Below are positions 1,150 to 53,847 of a stretch of DNA of 64,000 nucleotides, piece after piece. Within the stretch, counting starts at the first letter, position 1. The number at the start of each line of letters is the position of its first letter. The DNA comes from Candidatus Pacearchaeota archaeon (GTDB lineage Archaea > Nanobdellota > Nanobdellia > Pacearchaeales > GW2011-AR1). The notes below the pieces were generated by a model. It ran no database searches. It was not told the DNA's origin and saw nothing but the letters and a program-made list of their open reading frames with translations. Where the stretch lies: NCBI GenBank assembly GCA_018304175.1, contig JAGVWT010000002.1, positions 564 through 64,563 on the forward strand, in the 5' to 3' direction. A program made the translations under genes and the position numbers.

Positions 1150-1632
1150 ATGAAAAAAGAAGAAATTATGTTAGTAGAATATCAAAAGGCACAAGATTCA
1201 GCAGAGCACCATAATAACATTATGTGGACTCTCATATACATAGGGATAGGTCTCTCTCTATTTATTTTATATAAATTTTATACTGAAAATTATCCATTAG
1301 AAGAAGAAATGTTAATCTTTGGGATGGTTATTTTATCTTATTTTAGTTTTATAATATATCAATCAAACTTAAACAAATTTCTAAAATATGGGATTTGTAA
1401 AGAAATAGAGAAAAAACATAAAAAATATTTCTTAGGTCAACACACTAAAACTGGTTCAAGAGTTTTATCTTATTTTTTCCTTAATGTAATAATCTCTACT
1501 CTTCTCTACACTTATATTCTTTCTTTACCTCAAAAATACGTTTCTTTTATTTATGTAGGCTGGTTTTTTATAATTCTTCAAATATTTTATGTTATTGAAT
1601 ATACCATAGTTACGACAAGGAAGAAGAGATAA
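1150..1632 (+). CDS. hypothetical multi-pass membrane protein
   Basis: 160-aa ORF starting 2 nt after the upstream stop, with 3-4 hydrophobic segments. Confidence 0.5.
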   Translation: MKKEEIMLVEYQKAQDSAEHHNNIMWTLIYIGIGLSLFILYKFYTENYPLEEEMLIFGMVILSYFSFIIYQSNLNKFLKYGICKEIEKKHKKYFLGQHTKTGSRVLSYFFLNVIISTLLYTYILSLPQKYVSFIYVGWFFIILQIFYVIEYTIVTTRKKR

Positions 1633-1785
1633 ATTTATATATAGGCTGTTCTTTTATAATTTATCCTAATAAAATAGGGCGTTTAACAAATTCTGTTTGC
1701 TCGGTCGGGGCGTTTCGTAAAAAATAATTTATGGAAAAAGTTAAAAGTAAAAAATTCTTACATTAATAATAAATTTTTAGGAAAT

Positions 1786-2264: not shown

Positions 2265-3479
2265 ATGGAAAAATTCATAAAACTAGGATTAAGCACAGAG
2301 TTAATAGACGTGTTGAAGCAATCTGGTTTCAAAGAGCCGTCTGAAATTCAGGAGAAAGCAATACCTCTGGCATTAGCTGGAAAAGATATTATTGGAGGTT
2401 CTGCAACAGGAAGCGGAAAAACCCTTGCCTTTGCTTCTGCAATTATTGAAAACCTAAAACCAAATAGAGAAATTCAGGCATTAATATTAACTCCCACGAG
2501 AGAGCTTGCAGAACAAGTAGCGACTTCAATAAGACATTTTTCTAAAAATAAAAAACTTAATACAACTGCTGTTTATGGAGGGGTAAGTATTGGAAATCAG
2601 ATTAAACAACTCTACACAACAGATATTCTTGTTGGAACACCTGGAAGAATTATAGATCACATAAACAGAAAAACGTTAAAATTAGATGGTATTAAATTTC
2701 TTGTTTTAGATGAAGTAGACAGAATGTTTGATATGGGTTTTAGAAGAGATGTTGAAAAAATAATCAATTATTGTCCGAGAGAAAGGCAGACCATGATGTT
2801 TTCGGCCACAGTTTCCCAAGACATTGATTATTTGTCTAAAAAATATACAAAAAATCCTGTGGAAATATCTGTATCTTCTTATGTTGATCCATCAAAGTTG
2901 AAACAGGTTTATTATGATGTTTCAGACCATAAAAAGTTTTCATTACTTGTCGGTTTGCTAAAGACTGAAAATGCAGATTTAGTTATGGTCTTTTGTGGCA
3001 CAAGAAGAAACGCTGATTTTATTGCGAATAATTTAGTAAGAGCAGGGATACAAGCAAGTGTTATTCATGGTGGTGTTGAACAGAAAAAAAGAATAAAGGT
3101 TCTCGACGAGTTTCATAAAAAGGGCACTGGAGTTTTAGTTTGTACAGATGTTGCTGCTCGTGGTTTGGACATCAAAGGAGTAAGCCATGTATACAACTAT
3201 GATGCTCCGCCTGATTTAAAGGATTATATCCATAGAATTGGAAGAACTGCTCGTGCTGGGAAGGAGGGAAAAGCGATAACTATTTTAGCCAGAAAAGACT
3301 ATGAAAAATTTGGAAACTTATTGCGTTCCGAAGAGATTAAGATAACTCTTGAAGAATTGCCTAAATTTGAAATTGTCCAAATAAAAACGAATTTCAGAAA
3401 GAATAATAATTGGTTTAATAAATCTCCTGGAAGAAAAAATTATGGTGGAAACAGGAGAAATTGGTCAAGACGAAGGTAG
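2265..3479 (+). CDS. DEAD-box ATP-dependent RNA helicase
   Basis: Motif I GSATGSGKT, Ia PTRELA, Ib TPGR, II DEVD, III SAT, VI HRIGRTARAG. Basic R/G/N-rich C-terminal tail. Confidence 0.93.
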   Translation: MEKFIKLGLSTELIDVLKQSGFKEPSEIQEKAIPLALAGKDIIGGSATGSGKTLAFASAIIENLKPNREIQALILTPTRELAEQVATSIRHFSKNKKLNTTAVYGGVSIGNQIKQLYTTDILVGTPGRIIDHINRKTLKLDGIKFLVLDEVDRMFDMGFRRDVEKIINYCPRERQTMMFSATVSQDIDYLSKKYTKNPVEISVSSYVDPSKLKQVYYDVSDHKKFSLLVGLLKTENADLVMVFCGTRRNADFIANNLVRAGIQASVIHGGVEQKKRIKVLDEFHKKGTGVLVCTDVAARGLDIKGVSHVYNYDAPPDLKDYIHRIGRTARAGKEGKAITILARKDYEKFGNLLRSEEIKITLEELPKFEIVQIKTNFRKNNNWFNKSPGRKNYGGNRRNWSRRR

Positions 3480-11472: not shown

Positions 11473-12300
11473 ATGCTTAGTCTTATGACATTAATTATGA
11501 AAATGAGTTTAAGACAAGAAAATGTACATAGGGTATGTGGTCCTTTACTGGGGCTCTCACCATTAGAATTAGAAGTTTTACTAGACCAAAGTTTTGAGGA
11601 AGTTAGAAGTTTTTATGAAGAGAACCACGGATTAAATAAAAATCTAGAAAAAAGACAAAATTACTTTTTTGCAAAAAGCTTCTTAGATGGATGTAAATCA
11701 GTAACGGGAAAAATTTCCAGAGAAAAACATTTAGAAACTCCCCAGATTTTTGTAGAAATGGGAGAAAAAGGATATTCTACAAAATACAATCCTCAAATTA
11801 ATCAGAGAATTGCAGAAAAATTGGCACAGTTCAAAAGAACTAATGGAAATAAAGTGCCAGCTGATAAAATATTTTCAAAGCAATTCACACAGAATAGAAA
11901 TTGGATTATTGAACAACAGCTTGCAATTGTAAAATATTTATGTGATTTACAAGAAATATATCTACAAACTGGGAATCTATTAGATTTAAAACCGGTAAAT
12001 CAACAAAATATTGTGGAACATATAAATTACTCTGCGTCCAGCGTGTGCAGATTAATTAAAAATTTATCTACTAAAATTCCAAGTGGAAGAGTTATTTTTG
12101 CATATGAATTAATTCCTGGAGCAAAGGAGACAAATCAGAAAGGAACTTATGCATTAATGCGACTTAAAGAAGACCAAACCCTATATGAAAATGGAAGATG
12201 GAAAGTTTCAGATAGAGAATTAGTACCAATTTTGGAAAATAGATTTGGTATTCAGGTAGCAAGAAGAACTATTTCTAAATATAAGAGAATGACAAAATAG
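11473..12300 (+). CDS. sigma-54 (RpoN)-like protein lacking an obvious core-binding domain
   Basis: C-terminus ...VSDRELVPILENRFGIQVARRTISKYKRM matches the RpoN box (ARRTVAKYR). Upstream LKPVNQQNIVEHINYSASSVCRLIKN...GRVIFAYELI parallels the sigma-54 DNA-binding domain. The N-terminus MKMSLRQ...LGLSPLELEVLL resembles region I. The true start may be an internal ATG (about 11487-11500). Confidence 0.6.
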   Translation: MLSLMTLIMKMSLRQENVHRVCGPLLGLSPLELEVLLDQSFEEVRSFYEENHGLNKNLEKRQNYFFAKSFLDGCKSVTGKISREKHLETPQIFVEMGEKGYSTKYNPQINQRIAEKLAQFKRTNGNKVPADKIFSKQFTQNRNWIIEQQLAIVKYLCDLQEIYLQTGNLLDLKPVNQQNIVEHINYSASSVCRLIKNLSTKIPSGRVIFAYELIPGAKETNQKGTYALMRLKEDQTLYENGRWKVSDRELVPILENRFGIQVARRTISKYKRMTK

Positions 12301-14218: not shown

Positions 14219-14226
14219 TGGTACTA

Positions 14227-14369
14227 CGCTCGGCTTTGCCTCGCTTAAAAATCCTCTCGCTCGTAAACTCGCTCGAATTTGATATAATTGTTAATGTAAA
14301 AATTCTGAATTAATCATAAATTATTTTTCGGAGTTAAATATCTTAATAAATATCGAGTCGTTAGACGAG
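14227..14369. repeat. intergenic palindromic repeat family R, copy B (most complete)
   Basis: Left arm cgctcggctttgcctcgct + taaaaatcctctcgctcgtaaactcgctcgaatttgatataattgttaatg, then an AT-rich spacer. The right arm atatcgagtcgttagacgag is the inverted counterpart. Confidence 0.6.
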
Positions 14370-16744: not shown

Positions 16745-16920
16745 CTTCATTTCGTTCGGATTGATTTATTCATCCAATCCTGCCTTCGGACAAGGATTTT
16801 CGTAAAATAGAACTTTAATGTGAATATATGGGGTGAATATATTTTGGTTTTATGAGTTAACCTTACATACATCGAGTAACTTCAGAGCGAGGGAATTTAT
16901 GAGTGAGCCGAAGGCGAGCG
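16745..16920. repeat. intergenic palindromic repeat family R, copy D
   Basis: The reverse complement of the right arm, cgctcgccttcggctcactcataaattccctcgctctgaagttactcgatg, aligns with copy B. The left arm cttcatttcgttcggattgatttatt aligns with copy A. Confidence 0.5.
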
Positions 16921-16958
16921 ATCTTCAAACAAATTTTATAAACTCCTTTCTCTTTTTT

Positions 16959-26135: not shown

Positions 26136-26356
26136 TCTCGCTCGTAAACTTGTTATTGTTTCATTAAATTGTCTAGTGCAAATGCTCGCTATCGCTCGAT
26201 TTTAATAAACGCTCCGAGCCAAACTCCGTTAAGGTTCTCCGCGAAAAATTGTTGATGAAAATTGGAAATTAAAACGTAAAAAATCTTGGTTTTCTATGTT
26301 AACAATTAAATCAATTTGCGAAGCAGAATTTATAAGCGAGCCGTTAGGCGAGCGAG
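26136..26356. repeat. intergenic palindromic repeat family R, copy F
   Basis: The left arm is tctcgctcgtaaacttg. The reverse complement of the right arm, ctcgctcgcctaacggctcgcttataaatt, aligns with copy G (tcactcgcctgacggctcgaatgtaatt). Confidence 0.5.
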
Positions 26357-26368
26357 TAATATATTTTT

Positions 26369-34621: not shown

Positions 34622-34712
34622 AAGCCTGTGCTGAGGATTGAACATGAGGGGCAACCATGTTTCCCCTTACACTAACCCCTTCCTAATTAGTTTAAACCTA
34701 TTTATTAGTTCA
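34622..34712 (-). repeat. tRNA-flanking element E plus a 22-nt exact duplicate of the tRNA-Thr 3' end
   Basis: 34622..34643 (aagcctgtgctgaggattgaac) is identical to 34740..34761. 34644..34712, read on the minus strand, is ggtttaaactaattaggaaggggttagtgtaaggggaaacatggttgcccctcat (hairpin AGGGG/CCCCT). Confidence 0.8.
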
Positions 34713-34740
34713 ATACTATTTCGCTTTGCTCAATAGCATA

Positions 34741-34813
34741 AGCCTGTGCTGAGGATTGAACTCAGGACCTCTACCTTACCAAGGTAACGCTCTACCAACT
34801 GAGCTACACAGGC
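34741..34813 (-). tRNA. tRNA-Thr (anticodon GGU)
   Basis: Folds by hand as GCCTGTG/CACAGGC acceptor, GCTC/GAGC D-stem, TTACC-TTGGTAA-GGTAG anticodon arm, CTGAG-TTCAATC-CTCAG T-arm. 73 nt, no encoded CCA. Confidence 0.9.
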
Positions 34814-34821
34814 GTGTTTAT

Positions 34822-34901
34822 GTAGCGAACTAATCAGTTTAAACGAATTCAAACCGGAAAGTGCGCGAGAAAACTTCGTGTTCTCGCTGAGCTACACAGG
34901 C
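34822..34901 (+). repeat. tRNA-flanking element E (inverted copy) plus a 15-nt exact duplicate of the tRNA-Thr 5' end
   Basis: gcgaactaatcagtttaaacgaattcaaaccggaaagtgcgcgagaaaacttcgtgttctcg (hairpin GCGAGAA/TTCTCGC), followed by ctgagctacacaggc (34887..34901), which equals 34799..34813. Confidence 0.8.
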
Positions 34902-35692: not shown

Positions 35693-35765
35693 AGCCCCAT
35701 AGTACAGCGGTCAAGTATACTGCCCTCTGAAGGCGGTGACCCAGGTTCGAATCCTGGTGGGGCTA
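35693..35765 (+). tRNA. tRNA-Gln (anticodon CUG)
   Basis: AGCCCCA/TGGGGCT acceptor (A1-U72), CTGCC-CTCTGAA-GGCGG anticodon arm, CCAGG-TTCGAAT-CCTGG T-arm. 73 nt. Confidence 0.9.
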
Positions 35766-35770
35766 TTTTC

Positions 35771-35861
35771 AGGATTCTTGAACTAAATCGGTTTAAACAA
35801 TTAGGAAAGGTTAAGCGAAGGAAAACGTAGTTGTCCTCGCTTCGAATCCTGGTGGGGCTAT
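35771..35861 (+). repeat. tRNA-flanking element E plus a 20-21-nt exact duplicate of the tRNA-Gln 3' end
   Basis: ttgaactaaatcggtttaaacaattaggaaaggttaagcgaaggaaaacgtagttgtcctcgc, followed by ttcgaatcctggtggggcta (35841..35860), which equals 35746..35765. Confidence 0.8.
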
Positions 35862-35865
35862 AATT

Positions 35866-35982
35866 TCACTCGCCTGACGGCTCGAATGTAATTAGATTAT
35901 TAACGCAAAAACTTTAAGGTTAATATTAGAAAAGTTTTGATTATATGTTAATATTAAAATGTGAGCGACTTCGAAACGAACG
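35866..35982. repeat. intergenic palindromic repeat family R, copy G
   Basis: The left arm is tcactcgcctgacggctcgaatgtaattagattattaacg. The reverse complement of the right arm is cgttcgtttcgaagtcgctcacattttaatattaac. Confidence 0.5.
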
Positions 35983-36313: not shown

Positions 36314-36478
36314 TCATATCATATCTAATCCAACTTTTTTTCTCTCGTATTTCATTCTTTTTTGATTCTTTATACTTTTTAGTAATCTTGAGATAGTTTT
36401 TTCTTCATTATATGCAGGAATAATTATGCTTATCTTTATTATTGACTGAATGAATAAAGATTTAAAAGTATTATACAT
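36314..36478 (-). pseudogene. remnant of a family-2 glycosyltransferase gene (N-terminal ~25 aa only)
   Basis: From the ATG at 36478: MYNTFKSLFIQSIIKISIIIPAYNEEKTISRLLKSIKNQ is the GT2 N-terminal signature (IIIPAYNEE). It then diverges and stops after 54 aa. The listed longer ORF runs into the tRNA-Glu duplicate. Confidence 0.5.
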
Positions 36479-36490
36479 ATAAAATAAATA

Positions 36491-36550
36491 GCAAAGCCCC
36501 GTTAGTTCAGTAAAAGAAACCCGATGGTTTCTTTTCAACTTCCTCGAAAC
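36491..36550 (-). repeat. 20-nt duplicate of the tRNA-Glu 5' end (with 5 nt of upstream flank) plus a diverged E-like hairpin
   Basis: gcaaagccccgttagttcag (36491..36510) equals 36603..36622. It is followed by the hairpin AAGAAAC-ccgatg-GTTTCTT and ..cttcctcgaaac (reverse complement gtttcgaggaag, compare E gtttaaac..aggaa). Confidence 0.65.
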
Positions 36551-36607
36551 GCGGAACGGCGATTTCAAATTGCCTCCGACGAAATCGCGGAGAACTCTTG
36601 GAGCAAA

Positions 36608-36826
36608 GCCCCGTTAGTTCAGAGGCCAAGAATGCGGCCCTCTCAACTGATAACTTTATTGGTTTCGGTTTTCTTGGGCTTGAAATAAACAAAGAAGAGT
36701 TATCTCGGCGAGAGAAAAGCTCTTGCTAAATGCAGCTTTGTTTATCGGTTCAGGAAAAGGGTGATTTCCTAACGGAAACTCACCGAGAGAACGGCCGTGA
36801 CCCGAGTTCGAATCTCGGACGGGGCG
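36608..36826 (+). tRNA. tRNA-Glu (anticodon CUC) with a ~146-nt intron at the canonical 37/38 position
   Basis: Exon 1 is GCCCCGT TA GTTC AGAGGCCAA GAAT G CGGCC CTCTCA. Exon 2 is C GGCCG TGAC CCGAG TTCGAAT CTCGG ACGGGGC G. Intron GAGAG (36785..36789) pairs with the anticodon-loop CTCTC. Intron about 36646..36791, junctions +/-2 nt. Confidence 0.8.
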
Positions 36827-36834
36827 TTGTTATG

Positions 36835-36874
36835 AGATGTGTTTTTTATTCAGGTATAAAACAAAAACACATCT
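36835..36874 (+). other. perfect 12-bp hairpin directly downstream of tRNA-Glu
   Basis: agatgtgttttt (36835..36846) pairs perfectly with aaaaacacatct (36863..36874), with a 16-nt loop. Function unknown (processing or termination?). Confidence 0.5.
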
Positions 36875-36880
36875 GTCTGA

Positions 36881-36954
36881 GGTTTGAAAAAATAGTTTAA
36901 GGAAAAGGGGAAAATCGAAAAAAACCACTAGGTTGTTTTCAAGTTCGAATCTCG
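36881..36954 (+). repeat. tRNA-flanking element E (diverged) plus a 13-nt duplicate of the tRNA-Glu T-arm
   Basis: ggtttgaaaaaatagtttaaggaaaaggggaaaatcgaaaaaaaccactaggttgttttc, followed by agttcgaatctcg (36942..36954), which equals 36805..36817. Confidence 0.65.
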
Positions 36955-37026
36955 CTTGAGATAGTAGCATTTACAAAAATGATAAAAAACCAAAACTTTT
37001 ATAAAAGCTTTTTTTCTATTAATAAA

Positions 37027-37073
37027 GTCTAACTTCGGTTAGACGTGGAGGGATGACTTCGGTCTATTCCTCC
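37027..37073 (+). other. two adjacent GC-rich hairpins, each capped by a TTCG tetraloop (candidate small structured RNA)
   Basis: GTCTAAC-TTCG-GTTAGAC (37027..37044) and GGAGGGATGAC-TTCG-GTCTATTCCTCC (37047..37073), in an otherwise AT-rich spacer between tRNA-Glu and dnaG. Confidence 0.4.
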
Positions 37074-37332
37074 TTCATTTTCTTGCAGAGTTTTTTATAA
37101 CCAAAATCCTTAAAAAGTCTCCAAAAGTATAATGTTATTGAAAAATACCGATTAGTATATTTCATTATCAAATTCACAATCACTTTCGTTTTTAGCTTTC
37201 CAGCGAAAGAAACCGTTTGGAATCATTTGAAATAGCAAAAGGCTGTTTTAAGAGCAATGAAAGAATTGCAAGGTATTTTTCTAAGTCTGTTATTATAACA
37301 GAAATTAAGTAAACAAATTAAAATAAAATAAT

Positions 37333-38512: not shown

Positions 38513-39871
38513 TTAATAGTTGTCTAGATGGTTATCTGGATTATCTAAAAATATTCTTAATTTTCTGCCACGAGAAAAGTGGCGTAATTTTCTAATTGCT
38601 TTACCTTCTATTTGACGAATTCTTTCCCTAGTAACTCCAAGATTATCTCCTACTTCTTCTAATAAAAGGTCGTTGTCTTGATTAAATCCAAATCTTTCTC
38701 TTATAACACGTTCTTCTCTTGGAGTTAAAGACATTAAAGAATTAGAGACAACTTTTCTTTTATCATTTTTTACTACATTAGCAAACTGATTTCCATTATC
38801 AACTTCAACATCAATGTCAATTCCTTGATTTTCTTTTATTTCTGACAGTTGGTTATAATTTCCCGTTAAAGTCAAGTGTACATATCCTGAGATTGGATTA
38901 TGCCTGTTTTCTCTTCCAACATTTGGAAGTACATTCCTATTTTTAATTTTTTCAGCAAGTATTTTAATAAAGTCTTCATCAGATTTTCCTTGACGCTTTA
39001 CTTCTTCACATAACTTTATGAATTTTTCTTTTTTATTAGTGGGAATACTGGTGAAATATCCATTTTCAAGAGCATATTTTGATACAGTAGAAGCTACATT
39101 TGTCTTTATAAAACTGGAAATTCTCCCAGCTTCTGGTAGATAATTTTTCATTCTTTTTATTAAAGCTTCTGCACTAACATCTATTAAATCCCCTAATTCT
39201 ACGTAAGAAGGAAGATAATCAACCTTTGGTCTGAATCCGGTAACATATCTAATTTCTTCTTCGTCTTTATCTAATTCCTGCCTTCTACGGACAACATAAA
39301 ATTTGTTTGAACCTTTTAAAAAATCTGATGCAATATGAGTTATGTAAGGCATTGTTTTTGTGATAATTTCATTTATCGTCATTATTTGTTTGTCAGACCT
39401 TGTTTCAACTGTGTCTCCATATCCATCCATCAATTCAGTAAAATATTCTAAACCAAGTTTGTCAATTGCACGCCAACCTTCATCAGGGAAATTTCTTATT
39501 TCATCTAATGTCTTTAAACCAGGATATTCATCTTTTATTAAATCCTTAAATTTATGAGAAGCTTTTCTATTACTTGGTTCTGTAAGTGCATCCATTAAGG
39601 AATTGTATTTTTTAATTCCTATGCTTCTGTTTTCAAAATAACTTCTTACTCTATCAAAATAATTTCTGACTAAAATAGGAGTATGCTTTGTAATTTTGGC
39701 AATTTTGTTTATGTCAAAACTCAAATCAGAATTTCCTCTAGAAATGTGATTATACACATCAGTGAAACGGTCGTCTATTGTTTTTAAACCATTGTTTGCT
39801 TTTACTTGTGCTTCATAATCTTCTTCATACATGCTGTTTTGATTTAATTCTTTATTTATAAATATTCCCAT
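38513..39871 (-). CDS. sigma-70-family-like protein (clear region 4, divergent upstream regions)
   Basis: The C-terminal [50 protein letters not shown] closely parallels RpoD region 4.1/4.2 (LTxRExxVLxxRFG...[29 protein letters not shown]). Confidence 0.65.
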
Positions 39872-53605: not shown

Positions 53606-53650
53606 AATATTTATAAAAATCAGGTATTTTTAAAGGTTTTTGTGTGAAAC

Positions 53651-53847
53651 ACGCTCGGCTTCGCCTCGCTAATGAGGGGAACCAAGTTTTCCCTTACATT
53701 AACTCCTCCTTTAAAAATCTCTTATTCGTAAACTCATTCATCTATCTTTTTATTAATTAATAAAGAAAAATTTTAAGTTATTGGAATTAAGGGATATTTT
53801 GTGAATGTTAATAAGCAAACTATTGTTGGCGAGCACGAAGTGCGAGT
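53651..53847. repeat. intergenic palindromic repeat family R, copy C, carrying an inserted E-type hairpin
   Basis: acgctcggcttcgcctcgct [atgaggggaaccaagttttcccttacattaactcctcct] ttaaaaatctcttattcgtaaactc. The flanks align with copy B, and the bracketed 39 nt (53672..53710) align with 34644..34683. Confidence 0.6.

Follow-up and report, generated by a model that had tools for sequence, protein, structure and literature searches.

A miniature integrase-less element that behaves like an insertion in the tRNA genes of Pacearchaeota without breaking them

Why should an intact tRNA-Thr gene lie between two inverted copies of a structured repeat and, beyond these, between exact duplicates of its own two ends? 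The question is raised by a locus in a 64,000-nucleotide (nt) stretch of DNA from a Candidatus Pacearchaeota archaeon, called here the window, which is low-GC (~33%) DNA of a DPANN archaeon; the contigs considered come from groundwater metagenomes. Integrating viruses and plasmids classically land in tRNA genes, and the tRNA genes of archaea are also known for introns, split genes, and stray fragments of debated origin. The structured repeat, termed E, is ~60 nt long, the whole unit measures ~75-100 bp, and the inserts, of 73-97 nt, hold no open reading frame (ORF). E behaves like a previously undescribed, integrase-less element that inserts in tRNA genes without breaking them, and it is best read as a miniature, non-autonomous form of tRNA-targeting integrative elements with a duplication like that of an attachment (att) site. 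No earlier description of such elements was found in the literature on DPANN archaea or Pacearchaeota.

The decorated tRNA-Thr gene and the plan of E

tRNA genes in the window were called with ARAGORN and Rfam, and repeats of tRNA ends were traced by exact 11-mer chaining and a repeat finder. The tRNA-Thr locus consists of the following parts:

34887-34901, minus strand: outer 5' fragment, an exact copy of tRNA-Thr nt 1-15 (GCCTGTGTAGCTCAG), from 11-mer chaining and the repeat finder
34827-34887, plus strand: E copy of subfamily C, inverted relative to tRNA-Thr (covariance model, 83.5 bits)
34814-34826, plus strand: 13-nt spacer, GTGTTTA and then arm F' (TGTAGC, 34821-34826), from sequence reading
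34741-34813, minus strand: intact tRNA-Thr(GGU) (ARAGORN; Rfam, 68.9 bits)
34715-34740, minus strand: 26-nt spacer with the small hairpin module H2 (CTATT-GAGCAAAGCGA-AATAG), from sequence reading
34644-34714, minus strand: E copy of subfamily A, in the same sense as tRNA-Thr (covariance model, 68.5 bits)
34622-34643, minus strand: outer 3' fragment, an exact copy of tRNA-Thr nt 53-73 (34643..34623) plus one flanking T, found as a 22-nt repeat

A preliminary description of this DNA had reported the gene between inverted elements and exact end duplicates, and every detail of it that was checked proved accurate, including the hairpins GCGAGAA/TTCTCGC and AGGGG/CCCCT, the GTTTAAAC boxes, and the GGAA stretches. 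Both E copies point outward, one lying between the gene and each fragment copy. On the 5' side, GTTTAAAC lies at 34837-34844, the hairpin GCGAGA/TCTCGC bears the loop AAACTTCGTGT, the final base of E (34887) is shared with the nt 1-15 fragment, and the arm F', TGTAGC, complements GCTACA of that fragment copy (tRNA nt 6-11). On the 3' side, the arm F' (ATTGAAC, 34714..34708) complements GTTCAAT (nt 53-59), GTTTAAAC lies at 34697..34690, and the hairpin AGGGG/CCCCT bears the loop AAACATGGTTG. A homologue of H2 is also present in a related contig, L115, after the Thr 3' copy.

When E copies are aligned, a common plan emerges that runs from a T-rich spacer through arm F', TAAATCGGTTTAARC, 0-8 nt, AAAGGAAR, and 4-9 nt to a hairpin and the tRNA fragment. 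The core comprises TAAATCGGTTTAAAC, AAAGGAA, and the hairpin with loop AAACNTNGTT, and E carries a palindromic TTTAAA box. The loop is kept while the stem varies between subfamilies (GCGAGA/TCTCGC, AGGGG/CCCCT, GCGA(A)GGA/TCCTCGC, and GAAAA(G)/(C)TTTTC, with GCGAAGGA among the stem types), and the covariance analysis that had been suggested at the outset, done with RNAalifold, revealed compensatory changes in four of the seven predicted hairpin pairs. The GAAC of the GAACTAA motif in the preliminary description belongs to F', as the complement of G53-C56, and not to the core, because subfamily D has no GAAC.

Arm F' repeats 5-9 nt of the target in inverted form and complements the first part of the fragment behind E. 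The pairs are ATTGAAC/GTTCAAT at Thr, GATTTGAAC/GTTCAAATC at Arg, CAGGATTC/GAATCCTG at Gln, GGATTCGAA/TTCGGATCC at Leu (with one G.T pair), and TGTAGC/GCTACA, with longer versions, in the 5' copies; the inverted arms ATTGAAC, GATTTGAAC, GGATTCGAAC, and TGTAGC thus track the target sequence. This stem between F' and the fragment start (F'/F) occurs in 10 of 12 copies and is seldom equalled in shuffles, and the cognate pairs rank at the top of a cross-comparison. The inner break points are equally regular: seven 5' copies break at nt 15/16, inside the D-loop, and the 3' copies at 53/54, where the T-loop begins. The outer fragments end 0-6 nt past the tRNA gene. The lengths of the duplications (15, 16, 17, 21, and 22 nt) are set by the tRNA end.

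E at other tRNA genes and in other genomes

The pattern GAACTAA-N2-8-GTTTAAAC has three matches in the window against 0.02 expected, and all three adjoin tRNAs. Two covariance models built from E, R1 and R2 (~52-62 positions long, with match scores of 56-84 and 42-60 bits, respectively), were then run over ~240 kb of collected sequence and detected no more E copies except an orphan at 53672-53727, E being otherwise confined to tRNA ends. The window holds six E copies in total, two at tRNA-Thr (5' and 3'), one at tRNA-Gln (3'), two at tRNA-Glu (5' and 3'), and the orphan:

35693-35765, plus strand: intact tRNA-Gln(CUG) (ARAGORN, Rfam)
35770-35840, plus strand: E copy of subfamily B, downstream of tRNA-Gln (covariance model, 62.1 bits)
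35841-35861, plus strand: exact copy of tRNA-Gln nt 54-73 plus one flanking T (21 nt; repeat finder)
36490-36510, plus strand: outer copy of a 6-nt leader and tRNA-Glu nt 1-15 (agcaaaGCCCCGTTAGTTCAG), repeated at 36602-36622
36511-36601, minus strand: diverged E relative on the 5' side of tRNA-Glu, inverted (24 bits; the copy itself is in the training set of R2)
36608-36826, plus strand: tRNA-Glu(CUC) with an intron of ~150 nt (sequence reading; orthologue in L115)
36889-36954, plus strand: degenerate E copy of subfamily D, downstream of tRNA-Glu (42 bits)
53672-53727, minus strand: orphan E-like core with no adjacent tRNA, followed by AGCGAGGCGAAGCCGAGCGTG (44.7 bits)

The earlier remark that the break points recur at other decorated tRNAs is borne out by these copies, namely by nt 54-73 (+1) at Gln, by the leader with nt 1-15 at Glu, and by a 12-nt copy of the T-loop region at Glu. 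In the Gln copy, arm F' (CAGGATTC, 35770-35777) complements GAATCCTG of the T-loop and T-stem, and the hairpin GCGA(A)GGA/TCCTCGC bears the loop AAACGTAGTTG. The 5' copy at Glu has the hairpin AAAAGAAACC-ATCG-GGTTTCTTTT and a replaced TTTAAA box, and the 3' copy is followed by GTTCGAATCTCG (36943-36954), which is the 12-nt copy of the start of the T-loop region of tRNA-Glu. The intron of tRNA-Glu(CUC) lies at the canonical 37/38 position, and neither ARAGORN nor the Rfam tRNA model called a gene at 36608-36826; tRNA finders likewise overlooked a tRNA-Gln in L115. Two spurious ORFs, 36314-36568 and 36507-36692, overlap the stretch just upstream of tRNA-Glu. At tRNA-Met and tRNA-Ser (46.8-47.1 kb), ~12 kb away, the repeat search shows no decoration.

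E is not peculiar to this genome. A scan of metagenomes with the E pattern returned 18 loci, among them eight true E copies in seven different contexts, and orthologous loci collected through homologues of a neighbouring 164-aa protein added L115. Altogether, at least 12 further E copies occur in other contigs of Pacearchaeota or Nanoarchaeia, at Thr, Lys, Arg, Leu, Gln, and Glu tRNAs, and the census rests on ~20 copies from roughly 10 genomes; the scans of large collections were pattern-based and therefore under-sample diverged E subfamilies. E lies on the 5' side of Thr(GGU) in L096 and in L101 (= L109), of Lys(UUU) in L098, and of an intron-containing tRNA in L111, and on the 3' side of Arg(CCU) in L103 and of Leu(CAA) in L100, while the five copies of L115 are distributed over Thr (5' and 3'), Gln, and Glu. 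Each of the 17 tRNA-linked copies examined (17/17) points outward and precedes a tRNA-end copy, as the preliminary description had proposed to verify by a census. Most copies are one-sided, with a tRNA, E, and an end duplicate (Gln, Arg, Leu, Lys, and Thr in L096), and E stands on both sides at Thr and Glu in the window and at Thr in L115. The structure of the Thr locus recurs in independent assemblies of other samples (L086, L087, and L091), and since E is also found in other genomes, it is not an assembly artefact. E-decorated tRNA loci nevertheless disrupt short-read assemblies, many contigs stopping inside the Thr/Gln/Glu locus.

The core of subfamily C is 87-98% identical among six genomes whose tRNA-Thr genes are 76-93% identical. 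The spacers of the Thr copy in L096 and the Lys copy in L098 are 77% alike, and each fragment matches its resident tRNA; therefore, spacer, F', and core behave as a unit that travels together, with the fragment mirroring the target.

A comparison of orthologous tRNA loci, also called for earlier, found both empty and filled sites. The syntenic Thr/Gln sites are empty in five genomes (L118, L119, L120, L121, and L124), filled at Thr-5' only in L096, and filled at Thr-5', Thr-3', and Gln-3' in L115 and the window. Moreover, the number of copies of the 88-nt Thr-5' unit, as taken from assemblies, differs within the source population itself, with one in the window and L091, two in L086, and at least three in L087, and L103 carries two identical 100-nt units in tandem behind its tRNA-Arg. 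Other copies are worn. Fragments with 1-3 mismatches occur in L098, L101, L100, and at Gln in L115, and the Glu-3' fragment of the window is shortened; judging by these changes, they are older, decayed copies. At Glu in L115, E is followed by a decayed Thr-type fragment that is identical to Thr at 18 of 22 positions, and behind tRNA-Thr of the same contig a second E is followed by a non-Thr fragment. The cores of these two copies share an identical 3' half, and the arrangement therefore fits recombination between E copies. In L125 (300-445, plus strand), a 34-nt insert containing ATTGAAC-AAA-GTTCATT is bracketed by two copies of tRNA-Thr nt 1-17, and 4 nt beyond the gene comes a 9-nt 3' remnant (CTGAGGCTT) that derives from another Thr acceptor variant; both were probably left behind by elements since lost.

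Related genomes differ in how tRNA-Thr is oriented with respect to the conserved 164-aa gene, L118 and L124 standing against the window, L119-L121, and L125, and in L115 the Thr gene is 4.5 kb distant from it; this suggests that small inversions have occurred repeatedly around the tRNA cluster.

A few observations concern the hairpin loop and introns. Behind tRNA-Leu(CAA) in L100 (660-715, minus strand), a 49-nt insertion made of two small hairpins sits exactly within the conserved hairpin loop of E. Introns also occur in tRNA-Gln and tRNA-Glu of L115 and in tRNA-Thr of L101 and L122, and several of these introns end in GAGAAC. In L122, a metagenome-assembled genome (MAG) of Nanoarchaeia, one ~100-nt element is present at two tRNAs (1480-1640, minus strand, and 2940-3040, plus strand); it abuts +1 of tRNA-Gln and, inverted, forms the first part of the 37/38 intron of tRNA-Thr. 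Just upstream, an E-type hairpin (GGTTAGTGTAAGGGGAACCTTGGTGCCCCTC) precedes a copy of the Gln 5' end that has decayed, an arrangement that links the decoration of tRNA flanks to intron content.

Insertion element or host module

E is classed with tRNA-targeting integration because three features occur together, namely an uninterrupted tRNA gene, an inserted segment, and a direct repeat stretching from a loop as far as the gene end. The repeated tRNA segments measure 15 nt and 22 nt at Thr and 21 nt at Gln, always with the intact tRNA, and the same holds in eight other contigs; as in att sites, the repeat begins at a stem-flanked loop and stops at the gene end. The footprint of a mobile or homing cassette was also one of the options of the preliminary description, and it is the best supported of them, except that a cassette with its own tRNA copy is not needed, because most E copies are one-sided. 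It is about an even chance that E is a family of miniature, non-coding, structured insertion elements that colonise tRNA genes and are specific to Pacearchaeota and related DPANN archaea. An E unit would integrate into a tRNA gene, which would be reconstituted while an att-like direct repeat is left behind. The direct repeats would then allow amplification or loss by recombination or slippage, giving tandem arrays and empty sites, the inserted units would decay, and the copies would form dispersed homology feeding the rearrangements that E elements appear to drive. Lacking an integrase, E would therefore be mobilised in trans or spread by recombination.

In archaea, integrase att sites run from the T-loop to the 3' end of the tRNA gene, or comprise its 5' half in the case of pTN3-type integrases, and after integration in the 5' half the reconstituted tRNA is expressed from the promoter or DNA of the element (PMC8371274). 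E resembles SSV, pT26-2, and pTN3-type elements in its loop-to-gene-end repeats, in the intact tRNA, and in the use of both sublocations. However, it differs from them in its size of 75-100 bp, in the lack of an integrase or any other gene, in its tandem arrays, in having one core for both ends and for many tRNAs, in the target-complementary arm, and in the conserved hairpin. In 5' insertions, where a replacement promoter would be needed, the TTTAAA box could supply it, lying 23-33 nt upstream of the reconstituted tRNA; the distance from GTTTAAAC to tRNA +1 is 23 nt at Thr in the window and 30-33 nt in other 5' copies, and in the native tRNA promoters of the window yTTAAAAG stands 23-24 nt upstream.

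Within a single strand that folds, the F'/F stem would recreate the target in double-stranded form, in the manner of integron attC and CTX-phage attP sites, and it is to such folded single-strand recombination sites that the arm and fragment, by analogy, bear the closest resemblance among known systems. Both attC and attP share with E an inverted pair (ATTGAAC...GTTCAAT) around a structured segment of 50-70 nt, and attC also shares the crossover G|TT (T-loop in E, G|TTRRRY in attC) and tandem cassette arrays. Integrons have been reported in archaeal MAGs, Nanoarchaeota included (PMC9668308). Unlike attC, however, E has no L''/L' boxes, no extended imperfect palindrome, and no IntI gene or attI site, its box is GTTCRAA with C instead of a purine as fourth base (attC R' = GTTRRRY), its cargo is a tRNA end only, and its 5'-type junction does not lie at GTT. 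Only the outer pair of an attC site is present, the interior consisting of a 3'-proximal hairpin and an unpaired TTTAAA region. Miniature inverted-repeat transposable elements (MITEs), such as Correia elements and archaeal MITEs, share with E their small size, their non-coding and structured character, a dispersed and patchy distribution, and a possible promoter activity directed outward, but E has a 15-22-nt duplication set by the tRNA end without a fixed stagger, an inverted repeat derived from the target, and an occurrence restricted to tRNA genes, and it displays neither element-specific terminal inverted repeats nor a target-site duplication of fixed length. A related published model, in which a mobile element generates tRNA-Thr(GGU) fragments and disrupts tRNA genes (Sugahara et al. 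2012; PMC3293823), shares with E, as do transposing archaeal tRNA introns, the tRNA fragments beside an intact tRNA-Thr(GGU) and their proposed origin from a mobile element, and the ~100-nt element found both at tRNA-Gln and in the tRNA-Thr intron of L122 adds to this likeness; the element of that model is 1.8 kb long and encodes a recombinase, whereas E is tiny and leaves the tRNA uninterrupted.

Several points weigh against an integrating element. No integrase, transposase, TnpB, or HUH protein was found among the ORFs of at least 150 aa in the 64-kb window, nor beside any E copy (30 window ORFs scanned against Pfam, existing Pfam annotation of the central 20 kb, and neighbours at related loci). 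E patterns gave no matches or chance matches in IMG/VR, and blastn of four E subfamilies against phage and plasmid collections gave none; with no E on the viral or plasmid sequence searched, no autonomous partner is known. Among the species representatives of GTDB, which do not include the source genome, a 19-base pattern had 76 matches, all due to chance, one of them at the end of an archaeal contig without E features. A classical tyrosine recombinase acts poorly on a double-stranded circle of ~90-120 bp. Moreover, one core serves unrelated D-loop and T-loop targets, which an integrase of fixed specificity would not be expected to do, and carriage of the fragment within the element does not easily explain one spacer and core with the fragments of different tRNAs. 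The young Thr-3' copy in L115, with an exact fragment, lacks an F' arm. Finally, E is retained at the same sites although the neighbouring protein is only ~56% identical between genomes, and the very high conservation of the core could mean a host function.

Such a function in the leader and trailer of the host tRNA is the strongest rival, although a doubtful one. The inverted leader E would pair with the direct trailer E in a processing or protective stem like that of rRNA, closed by the duplicated acceptor halves, and one-sided copies would form stable leader or trailer hairpins. The leader-trailer and outer acceptor pairing that had been pointed out before was reproduced when the whole Thr locus (296 nt) was folded (z = -3.9), giving a long leader-trailer helix, and the two-sided copies at Thr and Glu in the window and at Thr in L115, the conservation of the core, equal to that of the tRNA, and the covarying hairpin stems with a kept loop all agree with it, as do G.T pairs on the tRNA-sense strand in four of five informative copies (helix CNGTTT/AAANNG of subfamily C and the F' stem of L100; by eye). 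Nevertheless, most copies have no partner on the opposite side, and where two sides are occupied they belong to different subfamilies, the leader-trailer duplex being therefore imperfect. No bulge-helix-bulge (BHB) was found at the junctions, in a non-exhaustive check by hand or in the fold of the Thr locus, whose predicted leader-trailer helix has bulges of 1 nt and 5 nt only, in place of the two 3-nt bulges, separated by a 4-bp helix, of that motif. The processing stem put forward earlier is conceivable for the two-sided Thr and Glu loci. In five related genomes the orthologous tRNAs carry no E; copies decay, undergo truncation, and sit beside non-cognate fragments; and identical units in tandem have no obvious role in processing. 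As for the decoy att sites that had been listed as well, the observation bearing on them is that old copies decay. Alternatively, the units might have spread without any dedicated machinery, by microhomology-driven template switching or recombination between tRNA genes (at the universally conserved blocks nt 8-15 and 53-61 and at T-rich flanks) followed by slippage. This is improbable, even if the inner break points fall at the borders of the best conserved tRNA blocks, the outer ends lie 0-6 nt past the gene in A/T-rich sequence, and direct repeats suffice for gain and loss in tandem: such events are rare and imprecise, and they leave unexplained the strongly conserved core, hairpin, and loop, the matched F', and why distant genomes had the same sites colonised more than once.

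Direct repeats of tRNA ends beside an intact tRNA are also the expected leftovers of integrases (PMC8371274, PMC3293823), and E copies might accordingly be inert scars, attL and attR sites remaining after the interior of kilobase-sized integrated plasmids or viruses was deleted. Independent deletions, however, would not yield one fully homologous unit of 75-100 bp at six or more tRNAs in more than eight genomes, perfect tandem arrays of a small unit would go unexplained, and a covarying hairpin would not be preserved, all of which makes this origin quite improbable. The least credible of the alternatives, to be given very little weight, is that E and its fragment form a small guide RNA, with a 15-22-nt guide, for a TnpB, IscB, or Cas12-like nuclease or transposase, which had been entertained as a scaffold-plus-guide RNA. 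The hairpin does directly adjoin a variable segment that is identical to DNA nearby, which recalls the right end of IS200/IS605 elements, and a box resembling a B recognition element and TATA box (BRE/TATA) lies ~23 nt upstream of the hairpin and is oriented toward it. However, neither the window nor the surroundings of any copy contain a gene for TnpA, TnpB, IscB, or a Cas protein, and the integrase and IS200/IS605 genes sought alongside them are equally missing there; the scaffold of ~50-60 nt is far shorter than known omega RNAs, and E shows neither tnpA/tnpB nor the ~100-200-nt scaffold of an IS200/IS605 end or TnpB omega RNA. The intact resident tRNA would stay a perfect target, the start predicted for subfamily D falls within the hairpin loop, and Rfam has no match, returning only tRNAs at gathering thresholds and nothing that overlaps E up to an expectation value of 10 (E = 10).

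A further pair of ideas, likewise improbable, is that E is a programmable, nucleic-acid-guided insertion element or, alternatively, a domesticated leader or trailer module that controls pre-tRNA maturation. In the guided version, F' would select the target by pairing with single-stranded DNA of the tRNA gene (T-loop or nt 6-11). The conserved hairpin loop would be the recognition site of an enzyme, belonging to the host or to a mobile element, that would insert the unit and copy the tRNA end in the process; if true, archaea would have a new class of site-specific mobile DNA that is free of genes. Under the preferred reading of E as a miniature form of tRNA-targeting integrative elements, the family yields D-loop and T-loop fragments of tRNA ends while the tRNA stays intact, with units that multiply in tandem and decay to orphan fragments. 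If E is mobile, it could be a minimal model for the origin of tRNA fragments, and perhaps of non-canonical introns, in DPANN archaea, and a recombinase recognising its hairpin would be a new, tool-like activity.

Four other structures were considered and rejected. The outer pieces, nt 1-15 and 53-73, do not amount to a split or permuted tRNA, as nt 16-52 are missing from them and an intact tRNA stands between. Registers for a BHB intron at 15/16, at 53/54, and at the palindromic AGCU (nt 9-12) give no flanking helices in a non-exhaustive check by hand. A transposon with target-site duplication and terminal inverted repeats does not agree with a 5'-copy duplication that reaches 4 nt into the inverted arm, nor with the differing duplication lengths. 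Decay of tandem tRNA genes is not compatible with an upstream remnant that is a 5' end instead of a 3' end, nor with the conservation of E.

Other features of the window

The genes of the window include those for the alpha and beta subunits of an archaeal phenylalanyl-tRNA synthetase (PheRS), DnaG, and RNase P p30. A perfect hairpin (GAGATGTGTTTTTT...AAAAACACATCT) is present at 36830-36880 (plus strand), in the interval separating tRNA-Glu from the E downstream of it, and ~100 nt further on two adjacent hairpins with UUCG loops (GTCTAACTTCGGTTAGAC and GGAGGGATGACTTCGGTCTATTCCTCC) lie at 37025-37085 (plus strand); they are possibly an unannotated small RNA. The flanks of the orphan E (GAGTTTACGA..GAGA.TTTTTA and AGCGAGGCRAAGCCGAGCGT) recur at 14225-14290 (minus strand) without the hairpin module, and it looks as if the E hairpin module had been inserted into, or deleted from, a second repeat common to 53672-53727 and 14225-14290. 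A GC-rich intergenic motif, consisting of GAG, a 3-bp hairpin (GCC/GGC or GGC/GCC), and GAG, is present at 26333-26359, 16900-16926, 35866-35890, 53650-53671, and 14225-14246, two instances directly following an E-fragment unit. Moreover, two archaeal proteins carry domains of bacterial sigma factors: the one encoded at 38513-39871 (minus strand) has Sigma70 region 4 (PF04545), a DNA-binding domain, and the one at 11473-12300 (plus strand) has a Sigma54 DNA-binding domain (PF04552, E = 2.7e-11).

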